Part shown: positions 1,110 through 55,633 of the stretch, piece by piece
Layout: the number at the start of each line of letters is the position of its first letter
Position numbering within the stretch: position 1 is the stretch's first letter
NCBI GenBank assembly: GCA_031550535.1
Contig: JAVBOM010000083.1
Span: 1,366-65,365, forward strand
Source of the DNA: Eubacteriales bacterium
GTDB taxonomy: Bacteria; Bacillota; Clostridia; Christensenellales; Aristaeellaceae
DNA: 64,000 bases
Reading direction: 5' to 3'
The notes under the pieces: model-generated
The model's database searches: none
What the model saw: the letters and a program-made list of their open reading frames with translations, nothing else
What the model was told of the DNA's origin: nothing
Translations under genes and position numbers: made by a program

Positions 1110-1233
1110 AGAGGCAAGGATTCCTCACGGAATCCTTCCATGACGGCGGCGCTGATTTGCAAAATCGGGCGCCATAAGAGGATTCCGCAAGGAATCCCTA
1201 TCTTAGGTGCCCGATTCTTCGCATCAGCGCCGC
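1110..1233. repeat. R63 repeat cluster, composite of hairpin-core-hairpin-core modules in mixed orientation
   Basis: aggattcctcacggaatcc, then gacggcggcgctgatttgcaaaatcgggcgccat, then gaggattccgcaaggaatccc, then gtgcccgattcttcgcatcagcgccgc. Matches the consensus shared by the other copies. Confidence 0.85.
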
Positions 1234-1806: not shown

Positions 1807-3171
1807 TCACACGTTCACCATTTCGTCACTTCGCGTAACATTTCTGATCCATTTATCGCCACGCAGGCGGAAGAACGCAATAATCCACTTGAAGAATTGG
1901 TCAATTCGCAGCACCACGAAGATCCAGGGCAGCGGCAGCTTCAGCACGAACGCGGCCACATACGCCAGCGGCAGCACCACCAGCCAGCCGCAGATCATGT
2001 CCACCGCCATCACAAACCGGCTGTCCCCCGCGCCCCGGTTGATGCCCACAAAGCAGGACGCGTGGTATGTCGTCCCGACGAGCGACACCGCCGCCAGCCC
2101 GATCATCTCAACCGCCAGCGACTGCGCCTCCCCGGAAACGCCGTACAGCGACGCGAACGGCGCGCGGACCAGGAACACCACCGCCGCCATCACCACGCCG
2201 ATCATCAGGAACATGATCTGGATCGTGTTGGAATACGCGCGGGTGCGCTTGTAATCCCCCGCGCCCACCGTCTTGCCGATCACCACGCACGCGCCGCCCG
2301 CCAGGCTGGATGTGAAGATCATGCCGAGCTGCATCAGCGAATCGCCAATGCTGTTGGCCGCGATCATGCGCTCGCCCAGGCGGCCGATGATCGCCACCTT
2401 GCAGAACCCCACAATGGCCCACTGCGCGTCCACAATGCCCACCGGCAGCCCGTAGCGCAGGTAGTCCTTCAGCAGCAGCCTATCCCCGCGCAGCAGGTCG
2501 CGCGGGTGGAGCGGAAACCGCTTCTGCACCCGGAACGCGTACACCCAGACGACGCAAAGCTCCAGCACCCGCGCCAGCACCGTGGCCAGCGCCGCGCCAC
2601 GCGCGCCCATCGCGGGCATGCCGAGCTTCCCGAAGATGAACACGTAGTTCAGGCCGATATTGGCCACCAGCGACAGAAACGTCGTGTACAGCGTCACCTT
2701 GACGATCTCCACGCTGCGCAGCATGCCCACCAGCGCCATGGAGACCGCGTAGGGCAGGTACGACCAGCACACCAAGGTCAGGTACGGCACCGCCGCCCGG
2801 ATCACTTCCGGATCGGATACCAGAAGGCCCAGCACCCCCGCCGGGAACAGCGAGATGGCCAGCACGAACGCTGCCGCGACCGCCAGGCATATCCACGACA
2901 CGAACGCGAAAATGCGCCGGATGCGCGCCGTGTCCCGCTTGCCCCAGTACTGCGAGATCAATACGGATGACCCGCCGATCAGCCCGGTGATCGTCGCGGT
3001 GAAAAAGGCGGTCGCGCCGTTTGACTGCGCCACGCCCGCGTACACCGTGTCGCCCAGGGTGGAAACCATCATGTTATCGGCCAGAACGACCAGAAAGGAT
3101 ACCAGCCCCTGAAGCGCCGACGGCAGGGCGATGGTGAAAATCGTGCGGTAAAACGCGCGGTCACGGACCAA
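1807..3171 (-). CDS. MATE family efflux transporter
   Basis: 454-aa polytopic membrane ORF with MATE-like N-terminus (FYRTIFTIALPSALQ). TTG start preceded by GGGGGGAG. Confidence 0.8.
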   Translation of the reverse strand: MVRDRAFYRTIFTIALPSALQGLVSFLVVLADNMMVSTLGDTVYAGVAQSNGATAFFTATITGLIGGSSVLISQYWGKRDTARIRRIFAFVSWICLAVAAAFVLAISLFPAGVLGLLVSDPEVIRAAVPYLTLVCWSYLPYAVSMALVGMLRSVEIVKVTLYTTFLSLVANIGLNYVFIFGKLGMPAMGARGAALATVLARVLELCVVWVYAFRVQKRFPLHPRDLLRGDRLLLKDYLRYGLPVGIVDAQWAIVGFCKVAIIGRLGERMIAANSIGDSLMQLGMIFTSSLAGGACVVIGKTVGAGDYKRTRAYSNTIQIMFLMIGVVMAAVVFLVRAPFASLYGVSGEAQSLAVEMIGLAAVSLVGTTYHASCFVGINRGAGDSRFVMAVDMICGWLVVLPLAYVAAFVLKLPLPWIFVVLRIDQFFKWIIAFFRLRGDKWIRNVTRSDEMVNV

Positions 3172-3188
3172 GGTGAGCTCCCCCCTTC

Positions 3189-3252
3189 GATGGCGGCGCT
3201 GATTTGCAACATCGGGCGCCGTAGGCGAATTCCGCCAGGAATCCTTACCTCT
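3189..3252 (-). repeat. R63 repeat copy in the leader region of the MATE gene
   Basis: gatggcggcgctgatttgcaacatcgggcgccgtaggcgaattccgccaggaatccttacctct. Confidence 0.9.
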
Positions 3253-3314
3253 ATGTGTAAACCGCCGTCATTGTACAGCGGGGGGCGCGAAAAAACAAGG
3301 AATATATGTGGGAT

Positions 3315-4920: not shown

Positions 4921-5853
4921 ATGTACATCGTGGATACCCACTGCGATACGCTGCTGGCCCGCTCGGCCCCCGTCAACGAGTTTAGCAAGAGCGCCACGCC
5001 CGATGTCACGCCTGAACGCCTTCGGGACGGCGGCGTGACATTGCAGGTGTGCGCCCTGTTCGCCGGATCGGACGGGCCGAAGGGCATGGGGCCGCGCGCG
5101 CCGCGCGCCATGGCGGACGCGCAGTTCGCGGCGCTTCACACGCTCACGGACCACGGCGTGCGCAAGGTGGACAGCCCGTTTGACGCTAAGGACGGCGAAA
5201 CCTGCCTGATGCTGTCCATCGAGGGCGGCGAGATCATCGGCGATTCGCTGGAAACGCTGCGGGATTACCGAAAGCTCGGCGTCCGGCTGATGGCGCTCAC
5301 CTGGAACCACGAAAACCTGATCGCCTATCCGCACTGCGACGGCGGTCAGCACGGCCTGAAGCCCTTCGGCTGGGAGGTCGTGCGCGAAATGAACCGCCTG
5401 GGCATCGCGGCGGACGTTTCGCACCTGGGCGAGGGCGGGTTCTGGGACCTCGTGTTCCATAGCGACAAGCCGCCCATGGCCTCGCACTCCTGCTGCCGCA
5501 AGCTCTGCATGCACACGCGGAACCTCACGGACGACCAGATCCGCGCCCTGATCGACCGGGACGGCTGGATCGGCATCAACTTCTATACGAACTTCCTGTC
5601 CGGCACCGGCCATGCGGACGTGGAGACGGTGGTGGACCACATCCAGCATATCGCGGAGCTGGGCGGCGTGGAGCACGTCGGCTTCGGCTCGGACTTTGAC
5701 GGCATCGACAAGGCGCCCGAGGGGCTGACGCACCCGGGACAAATTCCGAACCTGCTGGCCGCGCTGAGCCGCCGGGGCTTTTCCGCCCAGGAGGTCGAGG
5801 GCATTGCCGGACAGAACTTCCTGCGCTACATGAGACAGTTTGAGGAGGCGTAA
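4921..5853 (+). CDS. membrane dipeptidase (peptidase M19 family)
   Basis: [11 protein letters not shown] start motif, plus HLGEGGFWD and GFGSDFDG metal-ligand motifs. AGGAGG lies 8 nt upstream of ATG 4921. Confidence 0.85.
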
Positions 5854-5857
5854 CACC

Positions 5858-7525
5858 ATGGCCAAGTATGCGATCGGCGTGGACTTTGGCACGCTGTCGG
5901 CGCGCGCGCTCGTCGTGGAGATCGGCACCGGGCGCGAGCTGGCGGCCCGGGCGATGGACTATCCGCACGCCGTGATGGACGAAGCGCTGCCGGACGGCAC
6001 GCGCCTTGGCACGGACTGGGCGCTGGAGCATCCCCGGGATTATCTGGACTGCCTGGCCGGCACGATTCCCGGGGCCATGGCGGACAGCGGCGTGGACCCG
6101 AAGGATGTCGTGGGCCTGGGGATCGATTTCACGGCCTGCACGCTGATGCCCTGCAAGGCGGACGGCACGCCGCTGTGCTTCCTGCCGGACTTCGAGCACA
6201 ACCCGCACGCGTACATCAAGCTCTGGAAGCATCACGCCGCGCAGGACCACGCCGACCGGCTGAACGCCATTGCCGGGGCGCGCGGGGAAACGTTCCTGAA
6301 CCGCTACGGCGGCAAAATATCGTCCGAATGGGCCATTCCGAAAATCTGGCAGACATTGGAACAAGCGCCCGAGGTGTACGCCGCCGCCGACCGCTTCATT
6401 GAGGCGGCCGACTGGGTCATCTGGCAGCTCTGCGGCCGCGAGGCGCGCAACGCGTGCACGGCCGGGTACAAGGCCATGTGGTCCAAGCGCGAGGGGTATC
6501 CTTCGGAGGACTTCTTCGCCGCGCTGGACCCGCGCCTGCGCCGTGTCGTGGAGGAGAAGCTCTCCCGCGACATCTACCCCATCGGCGCGAAGGCGGGCGA
6601 GATCACGGCAGAGGCGGCGAAGCTCACGGGCCTGCCGGTGGGCACGGCGGTGGCCGTCGCGAACGTGGACGCGCACGTCGCCATGCCGGCGCTCGGCATC
6701 ACGGACCCGGGCAAGCTGCTGATGATTATGGGCACATCCACGTGCCACATCGTGCTGGGGCGCGAGGAAAAGCTGGTGCCCGGCATGTGCGGCGTGGTGG
6801 AGGACGGCGTCATCCCTGGGTACATGGGCTTTGAGGCGGGCCAGAGCTGCGTGGGCGACCACTTCGCCTGGTTTGTGGAGAACTGCGTGCCCGAGCGGTA
6901 TATGACCGAGGCGCGCGAGCGCGGGCTGCACATCCAGCAGCTTTTGACCGAGAAAGCGGCGAAGCTGGCCGTCGGCGAAAGCGGGCTGCTGGCGCTGGAT
7001 TGGTGGAACGGCAACCGTTCCGTGCTGGTGGATGCGAACCTGACCGGCGTGATGCTCGGCATGACACTGCAAACCAAGCCCGAGGACATGTATCGCGCGC
7101 TGATCGAGGCGACGGCCTACGGCACCCGGATGATCGTGGACACGTTCGCGGAAAACGGCGTCGCCATCGACGAATTGTACGCGTGCGGCGGCATCGCGGA
7201 GAAAAACCCGATGATGATGCAGATCTACAGCGATGTGGTGAACCGCGAAATCTTCATCTCCCGCTCCGCGCAGGCCCCGGCGCTGGGCAGCGCGATGTTC
7301 GGCGCGGTCGCGGCCGGGAAAGCGAACGGCGGCTATGACACCATCCAGGGCGCGGCAAGGGAGATGGGCGGCGTGAAGGACACCGTGTACCGGCCCATCC
7401 CGGAGAATGTGGCCGTGTATGACCGCCTGTTCGCCGAGTACCGCCGCCTGCACGACCTGTTCGGGCGCGGCGGGGATAACGCGCTGAAAACGCTGAAGAA
7501 GATCAGGCAGGAGGCGCAGAAGTAG
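5858..7525 (+). CDS. araB: L-ribulokinase
   Basis: From memory, close full-length resemblance to Bacillus AraB ([53 protein letters not shown]). GAGGAGG RBS. The TAG stop at 7523-7525 lies inside an R63 copy. Confidence 0.9.
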
Positions 7526-7581
7526 GGATTCCTGCCGGAATCCCCTTATGGCGCCCGATTCTTCGAATCAGCGCCGCCATC
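7519..7581 (+). repeat. R63 repeat copy overlapping the araB stop codon
   Basis: gaagtagggattcctgccggaatccccttatggcgcccgattcttcgaatcagcgccgccatc. Confidence 0.95.
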
Positions 7582-7665
7582 ATAGAGGCATTAACAATGC
7601 CCGCACGGCAGATTTTTCTGTCCTGCGGGCATTCTTGTTGTATGGCAGCGCAAACCGGATGCTGC

Positions 7666-8331
7666 TTATGGGAGGGAAGGCACGATATTCACGGACAGCA
7701 CGGCTTCCGTTTTCCCGTTTATTTCGACGCGCTGAATGATAAGCAATGTTGTCTCCGTGCCCACAGTGGACACCCAGCGCCGCATATGCCTGCCCGTGAC
7801 GACGGCAAGGGCCCCTCCCCCCGGCAAGGATATTGTGTCGGCAATGTCGTCCTCGTCAACCCGGGCGTCCGGTTCGCCGTACAGTTCGGTCAAAGCGTCG
7901 GCCAGCGTATCGTATAGCACGGCGAGATTGCCCTGCTCCCCATTGAAACTATAGTGCACCGACGAAAGCCCATCGTCTATGAATTCAATCGATGTGGAAG
8001 CAGTATAACCGTTCAGCCGGGCGCTGTTCTTGAAATTGTAGTCGCAGAATTCTTGGGACACGGAAGTCAGCTTCATCGCGTCCGCGAAATCAATGCCCAG
8101 TGCGTTCTCCACCTCTTCCGGCGAGGAACCCCAGGCGATTCCGTGGTACGCGTAGTCGCCATCCTCATTTCGCAATGTCGTAAGGTCGATTTCGTCCGTC
8201 CCATCGAAAGCGGTAAACAACCCCGTCAGCACAAGAAGCAACCCGATCCATGCGCACTTCCTTGACGGCGGCGCTGATTTGAAACATCGGGCGCCATAAA
8301 AGGATTTCGCAAGAAATCCATTCCTCTTCAT
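7666..8331 (-). CDS. hypothetical exported protein whose N-terminal codons 2-23 are an R63 copy
   Basis: ATG 8331 is preceded by AGGGAGGGTG. A hydrophobic segment WIGLLLVLTGLFTAF follows the repeat-encoded stretch. Confidence 0.55.
   Translation of the reverse strand: MKRNGFLAKSFYGARCFKSAPPSRKCAWIGLLLVLTGLFTAFDGTDEIDLTTLRNEDGDYAYHGIAWGSSPEEVENALGIDFADAMKLTSVSQEFCDYNFKNSARLNGYTASTSIEFIDDGLSSVHYSFNGEQGNLAVLYDTLADALTELYGEPDARVDEDDIADTISLPGGGALAVVTGRHMRRWVSTVGTETTLLIIQRVEINGKTEAVLSVNIVPSLP
8264..8328 (-). repeat. R63 repeat copy inside the 5' coding region of ORF 7666..8331
   Basis: gacggcggcgctgatttgaaacatcgggcgccataaaaggatttcgcaagaaatccattcctctt. The consensus TAG position reads AAT in this copy, which keeps the frame open. 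Confidence 0.85.
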
Positions 8332-11883: not shown

Positions 11884-11941
11884 GTGGGGTTTCTTGCGAA
11901 ATCCCTTTATGGCTCGGAATCTTCGGTTCCTCGCCGCCGCC
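11884..11941 (+). repeat. R63 repeat, divergent subfamily copy
   Basis: ggggtttcttgcgaaatccctttatggctcggaatcttcggttcctcgccgccgcc. The same variant core occurs at 33368-33410. Confidence 0.65.
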
Positions 11942-11958
11942 TCGAAAGGAGCGCGCGC

Positions 11959-13137
11959 GTGAAAGAGCGCAAGCGATACGACCATAAGTCCCTGCACGAG
12001 GAACGGAAATACGGCTTCTTCTGGTATGACTGGCTGTGGCGCGCCGCGCGCCCGGTGCTCATCACCCTGGGCGCCTTGATCCTGCTGGCCGGCATTCTGC
12101 TGACCGGCTGGAACATGCTGGGCGATAAATTCTTCAACCCCGTGGACCCCGGCGACAGCACGCCCATTACGTTTGTTGTGGAGAGCGGTTCATCGCTCAC
12201 GTCCGTCACCAATAAGCTGGAGCAGCAGGGTCTGATCCGCAACCGCTCCGTGCTCAAATACCTGATGGACTTCCAGGGCATGAGCCAGAAAATTCAGACG
12301 GGCGAATACACGCTGACGCGCGCGATGACGCTGAGCGAGATCATTAACCAGCTCACCACCGGCGACGGCAACCCCATTACGCGCAAAATCACGATTATCC
12401 CCGGCTGGACGGCGGAGGACATCGCGGACTATCTGGTCAGCGTGGGCGTCGCGGAAAGCCGCGAGGCATTCCTTGCTGCGTGCAACGACAAGGATACCTA
12501 CAGCAAATACTACTATATCGACGAAGTGCTGAAGACCGGAACGGCCAGCCAGCGCAAGTACCTGCTGGAGGGCTATCTCGCGCCGGATACATACGAAATA
12601 TACACCACGGCGACGATGGACAACGTGATGACCAAGCTGATCTCCCAGGTGGAGGCCGTCTTCAGCGCCGAGGATCACGCGCGCGCCGAGGAGCTAGGCA
12701 TGACCATGGACTAGATCATCACGATGGCGTCCATGATCGAAAAGGAGGCCAAGACCGACGACTTCACGAAGGTTTCCGCCGTGTTCCACAACCGGCTGAA
12801 GCTGGACATGAAGTTGGATTCCGACGTTACCCTCAAGTACTACTCGGGCTCCAAAAAAATGGCGTTGCCAAACTCGGAGCTTGGCGTCGCCTCCCCGTAC
12901 AATACCTACATGAACAAGGGGCTGCCCATCGGGCCGGTCTGCAGTCCATCCAAAGCCGCGATCAAGGCGGCGCTGTACCCGGACGAGGCGTTCGTCGCCG
13001 AGCAATACCTGTACTTCACCTCCGCCAGCCCGCAGGAGGGCACGCTGGTCTTCAACAAGACCCTGGCGGAGCACGAGGCCGCCGCGGCGAAGTATTGGCC
13101 GCTGTGGGAGCAGTATGACAAGGAGCGGGGAGTGTAA
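11959..13137 (+). pseudogene. mltG: endolytic murein transglycosylase MltG (YceG-like), interrupted by an in-frame TAG at 12712-12714
   Basis: ORFs 11884..12714 and 12724..13137 are in the same frame. The sequence reads ELGMTMD-TAG-IITMASMIEKEA, then VFHNRL, YNTY and GLPIGPV, which are YceG motifs. The likely start is GTG 11959 after AAAGGAG, and a TM helix follows it. Confidence 0.7.
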
Positions 13138-13864: not shown

Positions 13865-13880
13865 ACGCCACCTCCTAGAT

Positions 13881-13940
13881 GACGGCGCGGATTGGAGAAA
13901 TCAGCGCCATAAAGGAATTCCGCGAGGAAACCTTACCTCG
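13881..13940 (-). repeat. R63 repeat copy (degenerate), upstream of sigK
   Basis: gacggcgcggattggagaaatcagcgccataaaggaattccgcgaggaaaccttacctcg. Confidence 0.75.
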
Positions 13941-14004
13941 TCAGCGGCGCTGATTCGAAGAATCGGGCGCCATGAGGGGGATCCCGCAAGGAAACCCTTC
14001 CGCT
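13941..14004 (-). repeat. R63 repeat copy in tandem with 13881-13940
   Basis: tcagcggcgctgattcgaagaatcgggcgccatgagggggatcccgcaaggaaacccttccgct. Confidence 0.85.
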
Positions 14005-14070
14005 AGAAGGATATGACGCCCGGCGGCGGCGGAGACTACGGTCCGGCGAATCGTCCGCATTTTGCGCCCC

Positions 14071-14116
14071 ATCAAAGAAGAAGCGGCCGCCGGATTTTGT
14101 CCGCTGGGGCCGCTTC
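14071..14116 (-). terminator. rho-independent terminator downstream of the GlsB/YeaQ-family gene
   Basis: GAAGCGGCC ... GGCCGCTTC stem (14080-14116), followed on the minus strand by TTCTTTGAT. Confidence 0.55.
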
Positions 14117-14127
14117 GCTTATTCTGA

Positions 14128-14222
14128 TAAGGTAAGGATTCCTTGCGGAATCCTCTGATGGCGCCTGATTCTTCAAATCCTCGCCGCCGTCGCGGTACGG
14201 ATTCCTTTCAGAATCCCCTTCA
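14128..14222 (+). repeat. R63 repeat copy plus one extra hairpin-1 module, inverted relative to 13881-14004
   Basis: aaggtaaggattccttgcggaatcctctgatggcgcctgattcttcaaatcctcgccgccgtc, then acggattcctttcagaatcccc. Confidence 0.85.
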
Positions 14223-14257
14223 TAGCTCGCGACTTCCGGTTGCGCGCCGCCGTTTTG

Positions 14258-16040: not shown

Positions 16041-16627
16041 TCAACAAATGTCAATCCAGTAGACTTGCTGCTCAATACCCTCAAACGTATTCTCGCAGGT
16101 CAAAATGCCGCCACAACCAACGGCGGTTTTAGGCGAAGGAAGATTATCCTTGTCGCATACAATCATCACTCTGGGGATGTTCAGCATACGCGCCTCATCC
16201 AGAACAAGCAAGAGCTGTTGTTTCCCATAGCCCTGTCGCCGCTCCGACGGGCGAACTCCATACCCGATATGCCCGCCATGCCGCTCCAGTTCGGGCGTTA
16301 GCGAATGGAGCAGCTGGACGCTCCCGATGATTTTTTGATCGGTTTTTCGGACGGAAAGAAGGTGCTTGCGTGCACACCGTTTCTCAGCGTCTCCTTTTCT
16401 ATTGAAAGGGCAACCGCAAGCCACGCGTTAAAATCAGCGGCACGGGCTAGGCCGCAGCTTCCGTGACGGCGGCGCTGATTCGAAGAATCGGGCGCCATGA
16501 GAGGATTCCGCCAGGAATCCTTACCTCTGATCGCGGTTTCGCCAACGTCAACGTATTCCTGTCTGTACTCCCAGATGGCTTCTTTCATCTCGGCAGAAGA
16601 CCATATGAGCGTTAAATCTTTCGCCAC
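16041..16627 (-). pseudogene. GNAT N-acetyltransferase disrupted by an in-frame R63 insertion and a frameshift
   Basis: The N-terminal part (16298..16627) and the C-terminal part (16041..16424; HIGYGVRPSERRQGYG, CDKDN) are in different frames. The switch is at the ttctttcc run near 16348-16355. 22 repeat-encoded codons (RGKDSWRNPLMAPDSSNQRRRH) sit between GETAI and GSCGLARAADF. Confidence 0.7.
16463..16528 (-). repeat. R63 repeat copy inserted in-frame (66 nt) in the GNAT gene
   Basis: gtgacggcggcgctgattcgaagaatcgggcgccatgagaggattccgccaggaatccttacctct. Confidence 0.9.
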
Positions 16628-16636
16628 GATCTTGCC

Positions 16637-17026
16637 CTACTCCCCCATCAGCCGCGCGGCTTCCGCCACATCCGCGCCGATCTGCGCGCGGAGCGCCTCC
16701 AGCGATTCAAACCGCTTTTCCTCTCGAAGGAAGTGCGTTAGCCTCACGCGCACGCGCTTGCCGTACAGCTCCCCCGCATACCCGATCACGTGCGCCTCGG
16801 TCGCCGGAGGCCCGTCCGGCGCGGTCGGGTGCTTGCCGATGTTCACAACCGCCGGCCACCACGCGCCTTCCACGCGCACGCGGCCCGCATACACGCCCTG
16901 GCGCACCGTGTCCGGCGCGGGCATCGGGAGGTTTGCCGTGGCAAACCCGAGCGAGCGGCCAAGCCCTTTCCCCCGGCGGACAACGTCCTCCCACTCGTAA
17001 AGCGGCGCTGTATCCTGCCCGCTCAT
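16637..17026 (-). CDS. monofunctional riboflavin kinase (RibF C-terminal-domain type)
   Basis: 129 aa. GKGLGRSLGFATANL, NIGKHPT and EAHVIGYAGELYGKRVRV motifs. No FAD-synthetase domain. The ATG overlaps the TGA of the upstream gene (TGATG). Confidence 0.8.
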   Translation of the reverse strand: MSGQDTAPLYEWEDVVRRGKGLGRSLGFATANLPMPAPDTVRQGVYAGRVRVEGAWWPAVVNIGKHPTAPDGPPATEAHVIGYAGELYGKRVRVRLTHFLREEKRFESLEALRAQIGADVAEAARLMGE

Positions 17027-20231: not shown

Positions 20232-20293
20232 GACGGCGGCGCTGATTCGAAGAATCGGGCGCCATAAGGGGATTCCGCAGGAATCCCTACCTC
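20232..20293 (-). repeat. R63 repeat copy in a divergent intergenic region
   Basis: gacggcggcgctgattcgaagaatcgggcgccataaggggattccgcaggaatccctacctc. Confidence 0.95.
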
Positions 20294-20323
20294 ATCTCAA
20301 TATGTACATACAGTGAGGCGAAA

Positions 20324-31723: not shown

Positions 31724-31766
31724 GGACAATTCCTCGCTTTCTTTTTGTAAACCGATAAAAATCTAT

Positions 31767-32045
31767 AAAAAAACGCCCCCTGCCACAACAGCAGAGGGCG
31801 GATATACCGCGGTACCACCTCTATCTCGCCCGTCAACCTATTCCAAGAAACAAGCCGACAAGCCTCACAGGGAGCCAACACCCCCGCTCGATGTAACGGT
31901 CGAACCCGGCGAGACCTAGAACCCGAATGGCTTCAGCCCGCAACTCCGGGGAAGAATTCGTCGCCCAGCCCCGCTTTCTCGCACCGCCCGAAAGCTCTCT
32001 GAAGGGACCTGCTGGCAACCACGATTCCCCGTCTAACGTTTTTTG
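31767..32045 (-). promoter_or_regulatory. T-box riboswitch leader of the ABC transporter operon
   Basis: Minus strand has an AGAGAG box (31995-32000), a GGTGCGA distal loop, the T-box sequence GAGGTGGTACCGCGG (31808-31819 core), and the terminator CGCCCTCTGC-loop-GCAGGGGGCG plus TTTTTTT (31767-31800). Confidence 0.8.
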
Positions 32046-32076: not shown

Positions 32077-32293
32077 CCCCCTTTTGCAAGAAAATCTTTA
32101 GGCGGCATCATTTCCTTCACGGCCGCGCTGGTTTGGGAAATCGGGCGGGGCTGGGACTTCCGAATCAACGCCATCAAGGAGATGCGCGAGAAATCCCAAC
32201 CTTGGCCGCGTGCCTTGCCTCCGCGCCCTGCTTCCCGTATAATGTCCCCGTCATCAAATACACGCGGCTGCGCGGCGCGAAGGAGCAAAAAAC

Positions 32294-33410: not shown

Positions 33411-33431
33411 CACTGAAAGAGAGGCCCCTAC

Positions 33432-34289
33432 ATGCAGCAGCTATGGCAGCAGCTCTCGAGCCTGCTTTGGAGCATCATAAGCCGCCCGACGATCGCCGAC
33501 ATCCTCGACATCATCATCGTGGCCTTTTTGCTCTACAAACTGCTCATGCTCACGCGCGATACGCGCGCCTCCCAGGTGCTAAAGGGGCTCGGCGTCCTGT
33601 TCATCCTGTACTGGGCCAGCGACTGGCTCGGGTTCAAGGCGCTGAACTGGATTTTGAACATGGTGGTCAACAGCGGCGCGGTCGTCATTGTCGTCCTGTT
33701 CCAAAATGAGCTGCGCCGCGCGCTGGAACAGATTGGCCGCGCGGGCTCCACACGGCTGGACCGCATTAGGTCCGGCGAGAGCCGACGATTGCAGGATCAC
33801 ATCGTGTCCGAGCTGATCGGCGCCATGCAGAACCTTTCCCGCCGCCGCGTCGGCGCGCTGATCGTCATTGAGCAGCAAACGGGCCTGCAGGACGTGATCG
33901 AGAGCGGCTCGCACATCGACGCCGAAATTTCCGCCCCGCTCATTGAGAATATCTTTGAGCCGAACACCCCGCTGCACGACGGGGCAATGATCATTCGCGG
34001 CCACCGCATCGAGGCCGCCGCGTGCATCCTGACCCTGAGCGAGGACACCGGCATCAGCCGGGAACTCGGCACGCGCCACCGCGCCGCGCTCGGCGTGTCC
34101 GAAACGACCGACTGCGTCGCCCTGATCGTCTCGGAGGAGACGGGCATCATCTCCATGGCGCGCGGCGGGCGGCTGACCCGCCACCTGGACGCCCGTTCGC
34201 TCAGGCAGATTCTGGAGGAGATATACGGCGGCGAGGGCAATACGAACCTGCTCTCCCTGCTGCTGACCAAGCGCAAGCCCAAGAAGTAG
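33432..34289 (+). CDS. cdaA: diadenylate cyclase CdaA
   Basis: Three N-terminal TM helices plus a DAC domain (GALIVIE, PLHDGAMII, LGTRHRAALG). The TAG stop at 34287-34289 lies in the first R63 unit. Confidence 0.9.
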   Translation: MQQLWQQLSSLLWSIISRPTIADILDIIIVAFLLYKLLMLTRDTRASQVLKGLGVLFILYWASDWLGFKALNWILNMVVNSGAVVIVVLFQNELRRALEQIGRAGSTRLDRIRSGESRRLQDHIVSELIGAMQNLSRRRVGALIVIEQQTGLQDVIESGSHIDAEISAPLIENIFEPNTPLHDGAMIIRGHRIEAAACILTLSEDTGISRELGTRHRAALGVSETTDCVALIVSEETGIISMARGGRLTRHLDARSLRQILEEIYGGEGNTNLLSLLLTKRKPKK

Positions 34290-34471
34290 GGATTTCTGGC
34301 GAAATCCCCTTATGGCGCCCGATTGTTCCAATCAGCGCCGCCGTCGAAGTAGGGATTTCTGACGAAATCCCCTCATGGCGCCCGATTGTTCCAATCAGCG
34401 CCGCCGTCGAAGTAGGGATTTCTGACGAAATCCCCTTATGGCGCCTGATTGTTCCAATCAGCGCCGCCGTC
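34283..34471 (+). repeat. three head-to-tail R63 units with an exact 63-bp period
   Basis: Units at 34283-34345, 34346-34408 and 34409-34471, each gaagtagggatttctg(g/a)cgaaatcccct(t/c)atggcgcc(c/t)gattgttccaatcagcgccgccgtc. Confidence 0.95.
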
Positions 34472-34513
34472 AAGGCAAGGCGCAGGCACTAGACTTTTTC
34501 CGTTGGAGGCACT

Positions 34514-35833: not shown

Positions 35834-35850
35834 ACCAAGAAGTTCCGCAT

Positions 35851-36053
35851 GAAGTAGGGATTCCTGGCGGAAGCACCTCGGTATTGTCGCGCTGGCTGCC
35901 TGGCCTTGTCGCGCTCGCCCTTCGGCCGATCACTCTGTGCCGCAGGGCACCTTCGGGTCGCTGTATCGCCCACTGGGCGCGCTTCCCTTCGGTGTTGGCG
36001 GGCGCTTCCCTCCGGTACCCCTTATGGCGCCCGATTCTGTGAATCAGCGCCCC
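35851..36053 (+). repeat. R63 copy split by a 144-bp insertion in hairpin 1
   Basis: gaagtagggattcctggcggaa (35851-35872), then the insert (35873-36016), then acccct-tatggcgcccgattctgtgaatcagcgcc (36017-36053). Confidence 0.75.
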
Positions 36054-36179
36054 ATCATTGAATCATTTTTCCATTCCCAATCGTTCTTATGGACAGACAG
36101 CACAGATACGTTAGGGTGCTTACACGCGCTTTGTCGGCGGCAGGACTTTTCCCTGCGCCGTTTGCAGAGGGGGGATACA

Positions 36180-37472
36180 ATGTCCGGGATCGGCGAATTC
36201 GCCTACACCGTGCTTTTGGGCTGGATGCGCGCCGTGTTCGACTGGATATGGCTGATGGTTTCCGGCCGGGGCGGCAGCGGCGGCTGGCAGTGGTTTTTGT
36301 CCAACTGGAAAATATGGCTGGTCATTCTGCTGGTCGGCGGCCTGGCGGTCGACTGGCTGATGTGGGTTGTCCGCTGGCGGCCGTACCGCCTGCTCTGGGG
36401 CCGCTTTCACCGGGCAACGGCGAACGGCGCGCAGGCGGGCGACGACGCGTGGGACGACGGCACCGGCTATTATGAGCAGGAGACCGCCGCGGACAGCGAG
36501 CCCGCTGAGTGGACGGACATGACGCTGCGCACGCTCTCGGAAATTGACCCGAACTGGTCCGGCGATGTGGTCATCGATGACACGACGGGCTACGCCGAGC
36601 CGGAAAACGGCTATTACGGGGATGAAGCCGAAGAAGAGGAGACGCTGGGCACTCATGCCGGCGGCGGGGCCGATGCGGGCTACTGGGCGGAGACGCCGGA
36701 CGAGGCCGACCCCTTTGACGCATACGACGAAGAACCCGCGCAACAGCCGCAGCGGGCCGCGCCGGCCTACGCGGACAATGGCTACTACGAGGACGAGGGC
36801 GACTACGGCGAAGCGGACGCCGCCGCCTACGCGGAACAAGAACCCGTGTACGATGACGAAAATCTGTACGCGGAGGAACCCGCCGAGGACGCGCCCACTG
36901 TACCCCAGGCGGAACAAACGATGCAGTACGGCCGCCCCGGCCTGTGGCCAGGCGCGTTCCCCTTTGCCGCGCAGGAGGACGACGGGGACGACGAACCTGC
37001 GCCCGAGGATGCGCAGGTGTCCTATGAGGAGCCACAGTACTACACGGACGAGGAACCGTTTGACGCGCCGCCTGTGGAGACAGCGCCCGCGCGGGACACA
37101 GGGGGACGCCGGAGAAGGCGGCGGCAGGGCGGCGAGATCGTCGAAGGGCACTTCGACAATGCCGCGTATGACTTTGACCTCCCCACGCCCCAGCGTGGCG
37201 CGCGCCCCGCGCCGCCCCAGGACGACCGCCCGGTCCGCCTGGTGCAGCCCTCGCGGGAAGCGCCGCCGGAGCAACCCCGCAGCGGCAGGCGCGACATCGT
37301 GCGCACTGTCACTGGCAAGCCCGCCAAGCGCCGGGGGTTCATGCGCTTCAGCTCCTCCGAGGATGAGCCGATCTCCGGCCTGCCGCCGCTGAACCTGGAT
37401 GATCCGTTCCTGCCCCCGGCGTTGCCGGACAACAATCCGGACTTTATGGCGGACGACGACGACAACCTTTGA
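36180..37472 (+). CDS. hypothetical membrane protein with a long acidic Y/E/D/A/P-rich tail
   Basis: ATG 36180 follows AGAGGGGGGA. Two TM helices (WKIWLVILLVGGLAVDWLMWVV), then a low-complexity region. Confidence 0.55.
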   Translation: MSGIGEFAYTVLLGWMRAVFDWIWLMVSGRGGSGGWQWFLSNWKIWLVILLVGGLAVDWLMWVVRWRPYRLLWGRFHRATANGAQAGDDAWDDGTGYYEQETAADSEPAEWTDMTLRTLSEIDPNWSGDVVIDDTTGYAEPENGYYGDEAEEEETLGTHAGGGADAGYWAETPDEADPFDAYDEEPAQQPQRAAPAYADNGYYEDEGDYGEADAAAYAEQEPVYDDENLYAEEPAEDAPTVPQAEQTMQYGRPGLWPGAFPFAAQEDDGDDEPAPEDAQVSYEEPQYYTDEEPFDAPPVETAPARDTGGRRRRRRQGGEIVEGHFDNAAYDFDLPTPQRGARPAPPQDDRPVRLVQPSREAPPEQPRSGRRDIVRTVTGKPAKRRGFMRFSSSEDEPISGLPPLNLDDPFLPPALPDNNPDFMADDDDNL

Positions 37473-37523: not shown

Positions 37524-37587
37524 AGAGGTAGAGATTTCTTGCGGAATCCCTTTATGGCGGTTGACTCTTCGAATCAGCACCGCCGTC
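37524..37587 (+). repeat. R63 repeat copy
   Basis: agaggtagagatttcttgcggaatccctttatggcggttgactcttcgaatcagcaccgccgtc. Confidence 0.85.
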
Positions 37588-40206: not shown

Positions 40207-40266
40207 GACGGCGGCGCTGATTCGGAGAATCGGACGCCACAAAGGGATTCCGCAAGGAATCCCTTT
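40207..40266 (-). repeat. R63 repeat copy
   Basis: gacggcggcgctgattcggagaatcggacgccacaaagggattccgcaaggaatcccttt. Confidence 0.9.
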
Positions 40267-40506
40267 TTCACTTGCGCCTCGGCGTAGTGCGCGTCGGTTA
40301 AATATTTGTTGATAACGGATTCGAGCTCATGATGCAATTATACATCCGGTGTATTCGTGCACTCGCCGTCTACAATCACGCCGCTGCGGCAAACAATCAT
40401 CATCCGCATAGAAACCGCTGATGTTGTGGCGCTTGCAATGCCGCTTCTTGATTTCGTTCGCCCGCTCAAGGGGAAGGTCATTGAGCGATGCAAAGGGGTC
40501 TTCACC

Positions 40507-42479: not shown

Positions 42480-42640
42480 GAGACGTTCTCCTCTTGAGTA
42501 ATTTTTATTCGTCATATGTGTATTTATATGCTACCAAGGTTTTCCATTTTTGTCAAGATCACAGGGTCGAAAAGTTTCAGAAAATACGCCGATTTTCGAT
42601 GACAAGGCGCAAAGTCTATGGTACAATGGCCGCGTTTACG

Positions 42641-42700
42641 GAAAGGATTCTTCGAGGAATTTCTCTTCGGCGCCCGATTTTTCAAATCCACGCCGCCGTG
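42641..42700 (+). repeat. R63 copy (diverged) in the 5' leader of the aminotransferase gene
   Basis: gaaaggattcttcgaggaatttctcttcggcgcccgatttttcaaatccacgccgccgtg. Lies between an ATGACA-N17-TACAAT promoter-like site (42599-42627) and the AAGGAGGGA RBS. Confidence 0.75.
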
Positions 42701-45010: not shown

Positions 45011-45055
45011 AACACGCCGTCCGCGCGATTTGCTGCGCGGGCGGCGTGTTTCTGT
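45011..45055 (+). terminator. rho-independent terminator
   Basis: ACACGCCGTCCGCGC-loop-GCGCGGGCGGCGTGT followed by TTCTG. Confidence 0.6.
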
Positions 45056-45182
45056 GGCGGCGGCGCTGATTTGAAAAATCGGGCGCCATAATGGGATTCC
45101 GCAAGGAATCCTTTCCTTAACGACGGCGCTGATTCGAAAAATCGGGCGCCATGAGAGGATTTCGCAAGAAGTCCTTACCTCT
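45054..45182 (-). repeat. two tandem R63 copies ending 3 nt from the stop codon of the minus-strand gene
   Basis: gtggcggcggcgctgatttgaaaaatcgggcgccataatgggattccgcaaggaatcctttcctt, then aacgacggcgctgattcgaaaaatcgggcgccatgagaggatttcgcaagaagtccttacctct. Confidence 0.9.
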
Positions 45183-45184
45183 CG

Positions 45185-47002
45185 TCAGTTGATGGTCTCC
45201 CCGGTCAGGTTCTTCCAGGCTGCCCGGAGCGATTTTTGATTCGCGACGCCGTAGTTCGGGTCGTTCTTCGCGCACTCATCCATATCGCGCAGAAAGTGCA
45301 CGCACAGGTGGCCGTCAAAGTTGTTGTTCTCGATCTTTCCACTCAGGTGCGGCACGTTATGCATCGTCGCCATGGTCCAGGTGCCGCCCGGAAGCTGCAC
45401 GTACACAGGCTTGATGTCCCACTTTTTCATGTTACCAAACGCCGCGTTCATGTAGAGCGTGTCCTCCGCCGTCAGCGGCTCGCTGTCGCAGTGGTTGCCC
45501 AGCGAGAGGGATTTGAGCTTGTAGCCGTACCCTGTCGCGGGATCGTACACCTGCATGACGCCGCTGCCGGACCGCAGCGACGGCCTTACGGCGTTGAACC
45601 AGTGCAGGAGCTTGACCGACGACGCGGCCGGCCCGCTGATTTTCCCGGAGCCGCCCGTACCGGACGATCCGCCGGACGCAATCGGCGCGCCGTAAAGCGA
45701 GGTCAGCGTTGCGCTGCCCGCCACGCCATCGGCGTTCAGACGGTTCGCCCGCTGGAAGGCAATGACGGCCGCCTTGGTCGCGGTGCCATAGAACCCCGTG
45801 GCGTTCGCGGAAAGGTACCCCAGCGTTTTCAGCTTCTTCTGCATCGTTGTCACGGCGGCGGATTTCATGCCTTCCTTCAGCGTCGCGTATGTCGTGGTCC
45901 CGCCGGTCGTGCCCGATGCATTCGGTTTCGCGTTGCTGCTGTACAGCGTCATCTGCGTCGCCGAGCCGGCTACGCCGTCGGCGGTCAGGTTGTGCGCCCG
46001 TTGGAAGTCCTGTACGGCAAGCTGCGTCTGTGACCCGTAGAACCCCGTCGCGTTCGCGGTCATGTACCCCAGATCCTTCAGCGACTGCTGCAACGTCTTG
46101 ACCGCGTTGCTCGTCATGCCGCGCTTCAGCGTCGCGTATTCCGTGGCGCCTGTTGTGGACGACGGGACGCTGGCGGTGGTTCCGTCCGCAGCCTTCGCGC
46201 CGCCAGAGTACAGCAGGTTCTGCGTCACCGTGCCCGCCTTGCCGTCCGATGTAAGGCTGGATTTCTTCTGGAAGTCAACGACCGCCTTCTGCGTTGCCGC
46301 GCCGAAAATGCCGTCCGCTTTGCCGGACAGGTAGCCCAGCGCAACCAGCCGGTCCTGTAGCGATTTTACATCGTTCCCCCGGTCGCCCAGGCGCAGCGTC
46401 TTGGTCGAAGGCGTCCCGGCCGTGGATGACGTGCTAGGCGTGGTGTCCGCCGTCGTTGTGCCCGCCGTGGATGTGCCGGTGGTGGCCGCGGCCGTGCCGG
46501 TCGCGGCAATCGCGGTGTTGGCGTACATGATCCGCTGCGTCTCCCCGCCCGCGATCCCGTCCGCTTTGATTTTGTTTGATTTCTGAAAGCTCTTGACGGC
46601 TTCCACCGTCGATCTGCCAAACACGCCGTCCGCGCTGCCGGCCATGTAGCCCAGCTCGATCAGGCGCTTTTGCACATCCGCCACATAGGGGTTCTCGTCC
46701 CCCTCCTTCAGCGGATAGTAGCCGCTGCGGGTCAGCTCCATCAGGTAGGATGTGCTCGCGTACCCCGTATGGCCATTGTATGCTGTCTTTGTCCATCCGC
46801 CCGACGAACCCAGGATCGCAATCTCCGTGCCACCCGGGATCGTCACCAGGGTATCGCTCTTGGTGTTCGCCTCTTTGCGCAGGCGCAGATTGCACCGCGC
46901 CACGCGCGTCTGCGCCGCCACAGCCGGGAACACCGGCCACGCCGTCGCCACCATCATCGCCACCGCCAGCAAATACGCCCCCATGCACCTCGCCATACGC
47001 AT
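45185..47002 (-). CDS. secreted SH3b + 5x peptidoglycan-binding (PG_binding_1) protein with an uncharacterised His-rich C-terminal domain, paralog A
   Basis: Signal peptide, then an SH3-like segment (VARCNLRLRKEANTKSD...GWTKTAYNGHTGYAS). Five G-x-x-V-x-x-LQ-x-x-L-x-x-LGY...DG-x-FG units. C-terminal HNVPHLSG and NNFDGHLCVHF. Confidence 0.75.
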   Translation of the reverse strand: MRMARCMGAYLLAVAMMVATAWPVFPAVAAQTRVARCNLRLRKEANTKSDTLVTIPGGTEIAILGSSGGWTKTAYNGHTGYASTSYLMELTRSGYYPLKEGDENPYVADVQKRLIELGYMAGSADGVFGRSTVEAVKSFQKSNKIKADGIAGGETQRIMYANTAIAATGTAAATTGTSTAGTTTADTTPSTSSTAGTPSTKTLRLGDRGNDVKSLQDRLVALGYLSGKADGIFGAATQKAVVDFQKKSSLTSDGKAGTVTQNLLYSGGAKAADGTTASVPSSTTGATEYATLKRGMTSNAVKTLQQSLKDLGYMTANATGFYGSQTQLAVQDFQRAHNLTADGVAGSATQMTLYSSNAKPNASGTTGGTTTYATLKEGMKSAAVTTMQKKLKTLGYLSANATGFYGTATKAAVIAFQRANRLNADGVAGSATLTSLYGAPIASGGSSGTGGSGKISGPAASSVKLLHWFNAVRPSLRSGSGVMQVYDPATGYGYKLKSLSLGNHCDSEPLTAEDTLYMNAAFGNMKKWDIKPVYVQLPGGTWTMATMHNVPHLSGKIENNNFDGHLCVHFLRDMDECAKNDPNYGVANQKSLRAAWKNLTGETIN

Positions 47003-47164
47003 ACACACACAACCTCCCCGATTTGGGATAGGGTTATTATACGGGTAATTGTGTCGTGCGTCAACCAATTTGTAACATTTTTTACTTATTTTGTTAATTT
47101 ATCGAGATTTATCCGTCTTGTTTTCGTAATGTTATAGTATCCCCCCACCACACACAATCCTGCC

Positions 47165-53947: not shown

Positions 53948-54056
53948 ATTTCCACTCTTACCACTGTATATAGACCTTTCCCGCGCGGGTGTGGTATATA
54001 TTTGGTACTGGTCTTTTTGCAAAAAATCCTATATACTGTTGCTATGGTGAAATTCC

Positions 54057-54118
54057 GAGGTAGGGATTTCTGGCGAAATCCCCTTATGGCGCTCGATTTT
54101 TCAAATCTGCGCCGCCAT
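54057..54118 (+). repeat. R63 repeat copy overlapping the putative start of the caspase-like gene
   Basis: gaggtagggatttctggcgaaatccccttatggcgctcgatttttcaaatctgcgccgccat. Confidence 0.9.
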
Positions 54119-55633
54119 TGTGGTACTTTTTATCGCGCGCTTGTCGCGGCATTGATGATAATCAGCCTCTCCATCCCGGCGTCCGCCACCGACGCGCAGA
54201 CGCCTTCTTGTCGTGCGCTTCTTGTCGCCTGTGATCAGTTTGTCACCGCGATGGAAACAACGCCGATCGGCCGCAACAACCTGAGCCTGATGGAGGCGGC
54301 GCTGGAGCGGGATACGCGCGGCTTTACCATCTATCGCCAGTACGGCATCACCTCCAGCAAGGAGGCGCTGCGGCAGGCGATCCTCTGGGCTTTTGGCGAC
54401 GCCAAGGAGGGCGATATATCGCTGCTCTACCTGTGCACGCACGGCGAGTTTTACGCGTCCATGAACAATCCGGAGGGCGTGCTGCTGCTCTCGGATGGCG
54501 CGCTGGAGGATCAGATCAACGCGCAGGAGCTCAACGCGATGCTGGACGAGATCAAGGGCACCAAGGTCCTGCTGGTGGACGCGTGCAACTCCGGCGCGCT
54601 CATCGGCAAGGGGGTCTCCCCGGACATCGGGGCCGCGCGTGTCATGCGGATGTTCCAGTCCGGCGATTACAAAATCCTCACGTCATCCGGCGCGAGCGAG
54701 CCCTCGTGGTACTGGCAATCTTCCATCGACGAGGCCCCGCCCGGCAGCTCCTATTTTACCACCACGCTGGCGATGGGTGCGGGGCACCTGGGCGAGTTTG
54801 CCGCCGACGCCAACCGGGACGGCACCATCACCATGAAGGAAATGTATGATTACCTCTGGGTGAGCCAGGCGAGTTCCGCCGCGCAGATGTATCCCCAGGA
54901 GGATAACTTCCCGCTGTTCGTCTACGACCGCGCGCAAAAGGGGCAGGACAAGCGCGGCGAGCTGAACGGGTTTGTTTTCCAAGACACGTGGCTGGATCCC
55001 GAGAACCCCTTGCTGACATTCCAATACACGGCGCGCAAGTCCACGCGCGTGGCATACCAGATTACCTACCTGCGCAACGGCCAATGGGATTGGAACAACA
55101 GCGTCACGCTGCCGGATGTGACGGAGTTTGACGGGGACATGGACCCGATGGGCGACATCGGCCCCGGCCGCAAGCGAATCACGCTGGACCTCGCGGAGCA
55201 CTTGCCCGAGGGGTGGACATACGCGATGATCCACGTGATGACGCTGGGCGACAAGAACTCCGATCGCTTGCCGTTCGTCTACGCCAGCCGCGTGCTGGCC
55301 GCGAAGCCCTCGGCGGGCGACCCGAAGCTGTCCGTGGATGTCGCGTCCAACTGGGCGCGCAAGCACAAGCCGGAGCTGGATGTGTTCGTCGAGCATGCGC
55401 TGCCGTGCAACCTGACCGTGACCATCCGCGACGAGGAAGGCCGCGTGGTGCGCCACCTGTGCATCAGCAAGCCGACGCGGCCGCAGTCCCTGATCCCGTC
55501 CGGGAGCCAGTTCTACTGGAACGGCCAGGGAAAGGGCGGCATCCCCGTCCCGCCGGGCAAATACCAGGTGGTGGCGACCGCGCGGATCGGCGATATGCCG
55601 TATGAGGCGTCCACCTGGGTGACGGTGGAGTAA
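54086..55633 (+). CDS. secreted caspase-family (peptidase C14) protein with a C-terminal FlgD-Ig-like domain; start codon uncertain
   Basis: His-Cys dyad context YLCTHGE and LLVDACNSGALIG. DANRDGTITMKEMYDYL calcium-loop-like motif. C-terminal FYWNGQGKGGIPVPPGKYQV. The only in-frame ATG giving a signal peptide (MALDFSNLRRHCGTFYRALVAALMIISLSIPASA) lies inside the R63 copy and has no clear RBS. Confidence 0.7.
   Translation: MALDFSNLRRHCGTFYRALVAALMIISLSIPASATDAQTPSCRALLVACDQFVTAMETTPIGRNNLSLMEAALERDTRGFTIYRQYGITSSKEALRQAILWAFGDAKEGDISLLYLCTHGEFYASMNNPEGVLLLSDGALEDQINAQELNAMLDEIKGTKVLLVDACNSGALIGKGVSPDIGAARVMRMFQSGDYKILTSSGASEPSWYWQSSIDEAPPGSSYFTTTLAMGAGHLGEFAADANRDGTITMKEMYDYLWVSQASSAAQMYPQEDNFPLFVYDRAQKGQDKRGELNGFVFQDTWLDPENPLLTFQYTARKSTRVAYQITYLRNGQWDWNNSVTLPDVTEFDGDMDPMGDIGPGRKRITLDLAEHLPEGWTYAMIHVMTLGDKNSDRLPFVYASRVLAAKPSAGDPKLSVDVASNWARKHKPELDVFVEHALPCNLTVTIRDEEGRVVRHLCISKPTRPQSLIPSGSQFYWNGQGKGGIPVPPGKYQVVATARIGDMPYEASTWVTVE

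Follow-up and report, generated by a model that had tools for sequence, protein, structure and literature searches.

The window considered here, a stretch of 64,000 nt with 62% GC from an uncultured Clostridia/Eubacteriales genome, carries on both strands a short hairpin-forming repeat, designated R63. Three of its copies lie within protein-coding sequences, namely a GNAT acetyltransferase gene, a gene encoding an orphan exported or membrane-anchored protein, and the gene of a secreted caspase-family protein. An earlier note, made from the letters alone, had placed these three copies in open frames; they do read open on the strands it gave, and they are genuine frame-preserving insertions into coding sequence that existed before. 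The R63 copies and the three interrupted genes are listed in Table 1, together with open reading frames (ORFs) and ribosome-binding sites (RBSs) next to them.

Table 1. R63 copies and interrupted genes (positions in the window)
Feature	Position	Strand	Context
R63 composite	1110..1233	both	full unit 1141-1205 (-), inverted partial units at its sides; between convergent genes
R63 unit	3188..3253	-	stops 17 nt short of the TTG start of ORF 1807..3171; directly abuts GAAGGGGGGAG
R63 unit	7519..7582	+	ribulokinase gene 5840..7525; GAAGTAG head gives the last Lys codon and the TAG stop (7523-7525)
Orphan gene, 221-aa exported or membrane-anchored protein	7666..8331	-	AGGGAGGGTG RBS 7 nt upstream of ATG 8331
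R63 unit, GGAATGG variant	8264..8326	-	frame F2, after codon 2 of ORF 7666..8331
Degenerate R63 unit	11886..11941	+	ORF 11884..12714 open through it, frame F2
Two R63 doublets, inverted	13878..14253	both	13878-14004 (-), 14128-14253 (+)
GNAT pseudogene (PF13302/PF00583)	16041..16627	-	GTG start 16627; 1-nt deletion in run 16355-16357
R63 unit in GNAT gene	16465..16527	-	frame F3; splits the invariant Asn codon between GETAI and GSCG
R63 unit	20232..20295	-	divergent intergenic region
Three R63 units, head-to-tail	34282..34472	+	between cdaA and the next gene; first unit gives the cdaA TAG stop (34287-34289)
R63 unit	37524..37587	+	between convergent genes
R63 unit, GAAAAAGGG variant	40207..40270	-	between convergent genes
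Degenerate R63 unit	42639..42699	+	just upstream of the RBS and ATG of an aminotransferase gene
R63 doublet	45055..45182	-	starts 2 nt past the stop (TGA) of gene 45185..47098, which encodes a peptidoglycan-binding protein
Caspase-family (PF00656-type) secreted protein gene	54044..55633	+	native ATG 54044, context TATACT-N6-ATG
R63 unit in caspase-like gene	54057..54119	+	frame F3; after codon 4 (within codon 5); internal in-frame ATG 54086

A 31-nt core pattern of R63, searched with up to three mismatches, gave 15 matches in the window and none in 100 shuffles, and an nhmmer profile built from these copies returned about 26 copies or fragments on the two strands. Where units follow one another, Tandem Repeats Finder reported a period of 63 with 0% indels, both for the three-unit array (34283-34471, 96% matches) and for a two-unit array (45061-45180, 85% matches). 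The anatomy of the unit is given on the strand that starts GAGGTAGGG, referred to as S. The head, G-A-[G/A]-G-T-A-[G/A], contains a GTAG/GTAA tag and leads into hairpin A, GGGATTyC-N4-GrAATCCC, with a stem of 8 bp and a loop of 4 nt; the linker yTyATG joins it to hairpin B, GGCGC-CC-GATT-N5-AATC-A-GCGCC, which is GC-rich and nearly invariant, and the unit closes with the tail GCCGTC. In 13 of 18 window copies GTAG or GTAA stands directly before the stem; GGAA or AAAA takes its place in the remaining five. Across 20 copies, standard pairs occupy 95% of the pair cells (94% for hairpin A), and compensatory changes occur at two pairs of hairpin A (GC<->AU, 10:4; CG<->UA, 13:6), such that the variable positions keep base pairing, not amino acids. 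The two-hairpin fold has z-scores of -1.65 to -3.5 in four copies or strands, and the stem-loop pattern was matched 25 times as against 0.02 expected; halves of the unit also exist by themselves, such as hairpin A at 35854 and 38575.

A survey of familiar repeat and RNA classes led to several rejections. A clustered array of the CRISPR type is ruled out, the units abutting without spacers at a period of 63 nt and being dispersed on both strands, and an intrinsic terminator is ruled out by the lack of a U-tract on either strand of R63. An Rfam scan of the window returned no family for R63, its sole match being an unrelated T-box leader elsewhere in the window, which disposes of a riboswitch or other known RNA family. 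This T-box leader (RF00230, 95.8 bits, 31791-32045 on the minus strand) lies upstream of the 338-codon ORF 30749-31762, and a weak R63-like match (32119-32203) adjoins it on its upstream side. R63 is probably best described as a non-coding, dispersed repeat of exactly 63 nt resembling REP (repetitive extragenic palindromic) elements. It represents a new family of an already known kind of repeat: the mobile-repeat phenomenon is ordinary, the host is unusual.

The copy in the GNAT gene is the best match to the consensus (76.5 bits). Two overlapping ORFs jointly encode the PF13302/PF00583 acetyltransferase, for which 240 homologues were found, most of the 120 listed having about 174 aa. The insert is missing from all 13 aligned homologues and places 21 extra residues between GETxI and NGSCG; the earlier note had put it between GETAI and GSCG, and its size of 66 nt or 22 aa has to be corrected to 63 nt and 21 aa at 16465-16527. 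The comparison with insert-free homologues, which the note had proposed, thus bore it out in 13 of 13 cases here and in the closest orthologue of the caspase-like protein, P0123, and brought no target duplication to light. At the junction the DNA reads ATC A|[63 nt]|AC GGA AGC, the Asn codon AAC being split into AGA...CAC. This Asn of NGSCG is invariant in 26 aligned homologues, the insertion site lying within INGSCG, and in a homologue modelled with AlphaFold (mean pLDDT 89.5) this site falls into an ordered, conserved loop between helices 12-27 and 45-58, in a block that has a mean pLDDT of 91 and an invariant N34 and G35.

About 110 nt downstream of this insert, TTC TTT TCC has become TTC TTT CC by loss of one T, and the frame shifts after ...HASTFF (gene strand TTTT to TTT, corresponding to the A-run 16355-16357 on the plus strand). 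The earlier note had suspected both this frameshift and, as a caveat, the death of the gene. Both are correct: an independently assembled Logan contig (L004, run SRR23967709) is identical to the window (100% over 2353 nt, frameshift included), and because it reproduces the 1-nt deletion the GNAT gene is a pseudogene. A programmed -1 frameshift that would rescue the product was considered and ruled out, as TTC TTT C does not conform to the X XXY YYZ pattern of a slippery site. Neither GNAT fragment is present in the protein collection, and two further contigs, L002 and L003, have the same left junction as the window's GNAT copy.

The orphan gene begins AGGGAGGGTGATCCGCA ATG AA|[63 nt]|A AGG AAG TGC. 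Excision of 8264-8326 restores MKRKCAWIGLLLVLTG, with ATG AAA AGG AAG TGC reading MKRKCAWIGLLLVLTGLFTA, and the repeat-free leader MKRKCAWIGLLLVLTGLFTAFDG is canonical, with a hydrophobic core behind a charged n-region; when the unit is present, the leader is read in frame F2 and runs MKRNGFLAKSFYGARCFKSAPPSRKCAW.... This frame normally has TAG or TAA at unit positions 5-7, where the orphan copy has AAT. The earlier note had seen in this the removal of a stop; the replacement is real, but of 18 window copies 5 are GGAAxGG variants without this stop, and among 20 copies F2 is open in 6, so that no special stop removal is needed for this copy. The upstream start of the orphan gene is suggested by its RBS and by the leader that is restored when the repeat is taken out, and the NCBI gene call P0121 includes the repeat. 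A search among 5.8 billion proteins gave no homologue of the orphan protein.

In the caspase-like gene the start reads ATG GTG AAA TTC C|[63 nt, 54057-54119]|GT GGT ACT, and removal of the unit yields the leader MVKFRGTFYRALVAALMIISLSIPASA|TDA, which agrees both in length and in character with the signal peptides that all homologues have. P0123, the closest orthologue at 71% identity, comes from a different metagenome-assembled genome (MAG), lacks the insert and starts MEKKHNVFF...; its locus contains no R63 copy in 17 kb. The DNA upstream of the two genes has TTGGyACTGGTyTTTTT..AAAATCC..TATACTrTTkCy ATG G.GAAA in common, and because this conserved block ends at ATG 54044, the latter is, on this alignment, the native start, with the repeat beginning in codon 5. 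The statement of the earlier note that the repeat provides the only in-frame ATG does not hold, since ATG 54044 lies 10 nt upstream of the unit; the note had also allowed for a true start downstream of the repeat, and for this gene the native start was found upstream of it, in the conserved block. The ATG of the repeat itself, 54086, would also yield a workable leader, MALDFSNLRRHCGTFYR.... No Shine-Dalgarno motif precedes the ATG in either the caspase-like gene or the gene of P0123 (two upstream sequences aligned). The arrangement TATACT-N6-ATG without Shine-Dalgarno (window 53990-54046; 9990-10003 of contig L001, for the orthologue) suggests that the caspase mRNA may be leaderless, in which case the R63 hairpins would come to lie within the first 80 nt of the transcript. 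Look-ups of gene records for P0121, P0122 (the NCBI call for the caspase-like gene) and P0197 found none.

It could be argued that the two leader copies are not translated at all, the start codons lying further downstream, the copies acting as RNA elements of the 5' untranslated region (5' UTR) and the longest ORF being an artefact. Di Nocera et al. regard most REPs at the 5' ends of ORFs in several species as probably non-coding (PMC3733652). Many other R63 copies do stand in 5' UTRs beside RBSs, and the ORF 11884..12714 is likewise open through a copy, which most likely belongs to the 5' UTR because a better GAAAGGAG with a GTG start follows at 11959. The NCBI call P0122 starts 69 codons downstream of the caspase start. 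This start is implausible, because it deletes the entire signal peptide, which is present in all caspase homologues. The only starts past the unit, TTG 54154 and ATG 54157, would give MIISLSIPASA without a charged n-region, whereas ATG 54044 terminates the block conserved with the orthologue; even initiation at ATG 54086 would still translate 11 codons of the repeat and the junction codon. In the orphan gene a strong AGGGAGGGTG RBS precedes the upstream ATG, and past the repeat the frame offers no starts other than a TTG and a GTG, both inside the hydrophobic core. Untranslated copies in both leaders are therefore considered unlikely.

Somewhat less probable still, in our view, is a general decay of the host genes, in which all three would be inactivated or decaying, the two leader copies having stayed open only as insertions too recent for further damage. 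The GNAT gene is demonstrably dead, and its near-consensus copy suggests youth; the orphan gene has an atypical GC content at third codon positions (GC3) of 0.67 as against about 0.85, and the single-sequence AlphaFold model of its product is uninformative (pLDDT 44). The caspase-like gene, however, has kept 529 open codons and matches its own family with an E-value of 0.0, and the R63 copy in it departs from the consensus (70.0 bits; hairpin B and the tail are altered), a sign that it has been there for some time while the frame stayed intact. Furthermore, both leader insertions fall into the n-region, which is tolerant of changes in length and sequence and varies widely among homologues. We infer that the two leader insertions are translated, and that they are tolerated.

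Few copies lie within genes. Stop-to-stop open frames with coding-like GC3 make up 88% of the window, yet of the 17 independent R63 loci just 3 are intragenic (P = 6e-11 for an open-frame fraction of 0.88), the other 14 being intergenic and packed against gene ends. Several copies end 13-23 nt before a start codon and abut the RBS (those at 3188, 13878, 42639 and 11886, and one in contig L006 from another genome of the same sample); the doublet 13878-14004, for instance, stops 13 nt short of the start codon (TAGGAGGTGGCGT ATG) of a sigma-factor gene. Inverted arrangements are restricted to two loci (1110-1233 and 13878-14253), and the repeat is in sense orientation to the local gene at 12 of 13 informative loci (p = 0.003). 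At gene 3' ends R63 may supply the stop codon: the ribulokinase encoded by 5840..7525 aligns with PDB 3qdk to within 5 residues of its C-terminus, and cdaA (33417..34289) likewise ends with a TAG donated by R63. The gene following cdaA (diadenylate cyclase) is co-directional, and the array between them is presumably transcribed within that operon.

Across 20 R63 copies, frames F1, F2 and F3 are open in 16, 6 and 16, and the reverse frames in 3, 16 and 2, in agreement with the earlier observation that two of the three sense frames of the repeat are open. On average 49% of the readings are open, compared with 0.55 expected by chance for a random 21-codon frame at the composition of the window, and this equality with chance gives no sign of coding adaptation. 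As the unit measures 63 nt (3 x 21) and duplicates no target sequence, the downstream frame survives wherever it inserts in a gene. That the frame is unbroken, which the earlier note had pointed out, is thus true and carries no information for an element of this kind.

One might still think of R63 as adapted for coding or translation signals, with its length of 3n, open frames, Shine-Dalgarno-like GAGG head and internal ATG beyond a hairpin allowing it to give genes start codons, stop codons and positively charged N-terminal extensions, its peptides being selected. The order GAGGTA, hairpin, TTATG, after which F3 stays open in 16 of 20 copies, is suggestive, as are the TAG stops donated to two intact housekeeping genes and the net positive charge of the peptides encoded by both leader insertions. 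Yet three open frames out of six are what chance predicts, a length divisible by 3 has a prior of one in three, 14 of 17 loci are intergenic, and the variable positions conserve base pairs and not residues. A profile of the F3 peptide found only 6 proteins among 1.84 billion representatives, the match always being at the extreme N- or C-terminus. Selection for encoded peptides, which include FWRNPLMALDFSNLR and NGFLAK, is accordingly very improbable.

The survival of the intragenic copies can be rationalized as follows. Any insertion of R63 in a gene would preserve the frame, and about half of its six readings would be free of stops; selection would then remove almost all intragenic copies, and the three that remain would mark sites where 21 added residues cost little. 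Two of these would be the positively charged cytoplasmic n-regions of export leaders, right behind the start codon, and the third the dead GNAT gene. The net positive charge of both leader-inserted peptides is in keeping with a cytoplasmic n-region. A predicted cleavage site, ASA|T, closes the caspase leader, given which the mature protein would be unchanged; no such site is evident in the orphan leader, and there the R63 segment may remain as the cytoplasmic tail of a membrane anchor. A non-coding 63-nt repeat of REP-like character, with a one-sided target and with intragenic survivors only at tolerant sites, is the account that we consider likely to be correct overall. It would provide a clean, testable example of insertion survival by frame arithmetic and tolerant sites (n-regions of export leaders, dead genes).

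The one-sided target is best seen in 17 independent R63 flanks, the junctions between adjacent units being left out. At the GCCGTC end, on the complement of S, positions -6 to -1 read T (11/17), T (11/17), C (15/17), C/T (14/17), N and T, which on the S strand corresponds to insert | A-N-G-G-A-A. The last 8 nt of this flank are 75% pyrimidine, a value reached by 0 of 20000 random samples, and YTYC occurs in 10 of 17 flanks as against 1.9 expected; the opposite flank has only a conserved A at -1 (10 of 13). Since in the GNAT gene the motif AC GGA AGC is native Asn-Gly-Ser coding DNA that does not vary in the family, it is part of the target rather than of the element. The unit is followed by A-C-GGAAG in the GNAT gene and by A-A-GGAAG in the orphan gene, G-T-GGTAC in the caspase-like gene being a weaker match. 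The motif, TTCC at -6 to -3, is one-sided and stands 2 nt off the junction. A shift of the unit boundaries by 2 nt, so as to abut the target, was ruled out: the GNAT ancestor would need Arg in place of the invariant Asn, and the conserved terminal 'GA' would be put into the flank. The target motif is the one well-supported new detail that emerges from the analysis.

Terminal inverted repeats are absent, the ends GAGGTAGGG... and ...GCCGCCGTC not being mutually complementary, and no target-site duplication was seen at the three reconstructed empty sites ATCA|ACGG, ATGAA|AAGG and ATTCC|GTGG. R63 would spread as a non-autonomous element lacking both features, inserting beside a short, purine-rich, Shine-Dalgarno-like sequence on one side only. 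A target of this kind can explain the copies upstream of RBSs and at gene ends. On ORF strands, GGA[AG]G, the Shine-Dalgarno core, is 2.9 times commoner in sense than in antisense (253 versus 88), and this excess would explain the sense orientation of R63 and the abutted RBSs; the 5' end of R63, GAGGTAAG, itself resembles the target motif, which would explain the head-to-tail arrays as insertion next to an existing copy. The target thus offers a simple account of the gene-wise orientation and RBS-adjacent position of small bacterial repeats.

HUH/Y1 single-strand transposition is recognized by the lack of terminal inverted repeats and duplication, by hairpins near both ends and by an asymmetric short target (PMC3733652). 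Since R63 appears to combine these properties, we infer mobility by such a mechanism, of the IS200/IS605 or RAYT (REP-associated tyrosine transposase) type. The non-autonomous derivatives of IS200/IS605 (PATE-type elements; RAYT/REP) resemble R63 in lacking terminal inverted repeats and target-site duplication and in having hairpins near both ends, and probably also in a strand-specific, one-sided short target beside one end that resembles the other terminus of the element. In R63, in contrast, the TTCC motif (on the complement of the gene-sense strand) stands 2 nt off the junction and does not abut it, and the orientation follows the direction of the local gene and not a single replication strand. 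Group 1 RAYTs have been reported in Clostridia (PMC5581495). That R63 is the first REP/RAYT-like system described in Clostridia, moved by an HUH enzyme that targets GGAA/GGAG on the non-template strand, is a tentative and rather doubtful proposal. If true, R63 would remodel gene termini by inserting beside RBSs, donating stops and starts and extending export leaders, and it would also be a sense-strand RNA element in operons, as in the three-unit array of the cdaA operon.

Among known repeats, the GTAG REPs (REPs of E. coli and Pseudomonas, BIMEs, REPINs) come closest. Like R63, they are short GC-rich stem-loops (stem of 6-13 bp, small loop) with an unpaired GTAG (GTAA, or degenerate GTRG) head, occur in very high copy number, mainly in intergenic regions at gene ends, and lend the TAG of their tag as a stop to the upstream gene; the occasional copies inside ORFs, notably N-terminal, the compensatory stem changes and the lack of target duplication are common to both. 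GTAG REPs are known to donate TAG stops and to occur inside ORFs of several phyla, many of them at N-termini (PMC3733652). For GTAG repeats the survey of 2013 names Proteobacteria, Cyanobacteria, Chloroflexi and PVC, Firmicutes not being among the phyla listed (PMC3733652), so a Firmicutes/Clostridia lineage would now be added to the organisms with REP-like repeats inside genes. A literature search for REP-like repeats in Clostridiales yielded nothing. The REPs differ in being a single palindrome of 20-40 nt or an inverted dimer, whereas R63 is a fixed pair of two unrelated hairpins; the GTAG tag is missing in 5 of 18 R63 copies. A cognate RAYT gene with the repeats on its flanks is a further mark of the GTAG REPs, and for R63 none was seen among the 10 window ORFs scanned. 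Membership of the CGTC-tagged REP superfamily was considered as well, since R63 ends GCCGTC, and rejected: there the terminal CGTC adjoins a stem of 8-9 bp that opens with A-T pairs, with a CCA-like tail, whereas hairpin B of R63 starts GGCGC and has an internal loop, and R63 lacks a CCA tail.

The earlier note had compared R63 with the Rickettsia palindromic elements (RPEs), reportedly described by Ogata et al. in 2000. RPEs are about 100-150 bp long, with dozens of copies within functional genes, at surface positions of the mature proteins. As an analogy the comparison is apt, palindromic repeats lying in frame inside protein-coding genes with the ORF preserved. It goes no further: R63 is unrelated in sequence, without a match in Rfam or elsewhere, and its intragenic copies number only three, one in a pseudogene and the others in N-terminal export leaders, not in mature proteins, which rules out membership of the RPE family. 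MITEs (miniature transposable elements with inverted repeats) such as ERIC, Correia/NEMIS and BOX are also small, non-autonomous and sometimes read within host ORFs (PMC10969869). Identity with them is ruled out, as MITEs have terminal inverted repeats and target-site duplications and R63 has neither. According to a review of 2024 it is 'not unusual' for intragenic MITEs to form in-frame fusions, the RPEs standing out by their frequency (PMC10969869). The points that distinguish R63 are the fixed two-hairpin unit of 63 nt, the head-to-tail arrays, the Shine-Dalgarno-like target and the survivors in leader n-regions.

Several points weigh against a mobile REP-like repeat whose leader copies are translated. 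Translation through the repeats is read from the sequence, and the NCBI call P0122 skips the region in the caspase-like gene; hairpins so near a start codon could impede initiation. For the orphan gene the polarity of the insertion is given only by the clean excision product, because the species is a singleton at 90% identity and offers no conspecific empty site. Classical REPs are mainly inverted dimers, and the head-to-tail arrays that are common in the fixed two-hairpin units of R63 are rare among them. Finally, no transposase, either RAYT or IS200/IS605 TnpA, was found among the 10 window ORFs scanned, and the target motif is set off by 2 nt from the junction, the targets of the IS608 type being flush.

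R63 is not confined to this genome. The six proteins found with the F3-peptide profile led to two R63-bearing contigs of 69% and 53% GC, each with one of these proteins and both from run SRR23967709, which also yielded contigs identical to the window. A Eubacteriales MAG of 57% GC, whose accession series suggests the same project, has a third such contig. R63 is thus common to several genomes, apparently of one community. The core was found at one locus at least (L005) in the genome collection; the exact DNA pattern gave 0 matches in JGI metagenome contigs and 0 in IMG/VR, and a blastn search with the three-unit array had no match in plasmids or phages. With the peptide profile, 103 stretches were matched in metagenomes, of which tblastn confirmed none, the query being too short for it. 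In two other genomes of the same sample (L006, 1780-1868; L007, 1473-1545) predicted proteins are read through R63 at the 3' ends of their genes before a stop is reached, and a four-carbon acid sugar kinase-like protein and a PnuC-like transporter thereby gain repeat-encoded C-terminal tails.

The short-read Logan contigs L002, L003 and L004 (SRR23967707, SRR23967709) begin and end inside R63 copies, and L003 continues beyond the GNAT copy with unrelated sequence, suggesting a chimeric join. Short-read assemblies are fragmented and mis-joined by R63, and it misleads gene callers on starts, stops and pseudogenes in these MAGs.

A few further features of the window may be mentioned. Two R63 fragments (35850-36051) are situated upstream of a gene (ORF 35937..37472) whose product is long, acidic and of low complexity; the longest reading of this ORF crosses one of them (PLMAPDSVNQR), the likely start being MSGIGEF... 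near 36180. The ORFs 62947-63999 (-) and 57486-58697 (+), one encoding a protein with a type I restriction HsdR N-terminal domain and the other an MFS transporter, have GC3 values of 0.60 and 0.68, clearly below the rest of the window, and to judge from this composition may have been acquired horizontally. The minus strand of 17026-20115 encodes a 1029-aa protein with many repeats of a Y-x-D-A/tetratricopeptide-like motif and a Pro/Thr/Ala-rich C-terminal tail.

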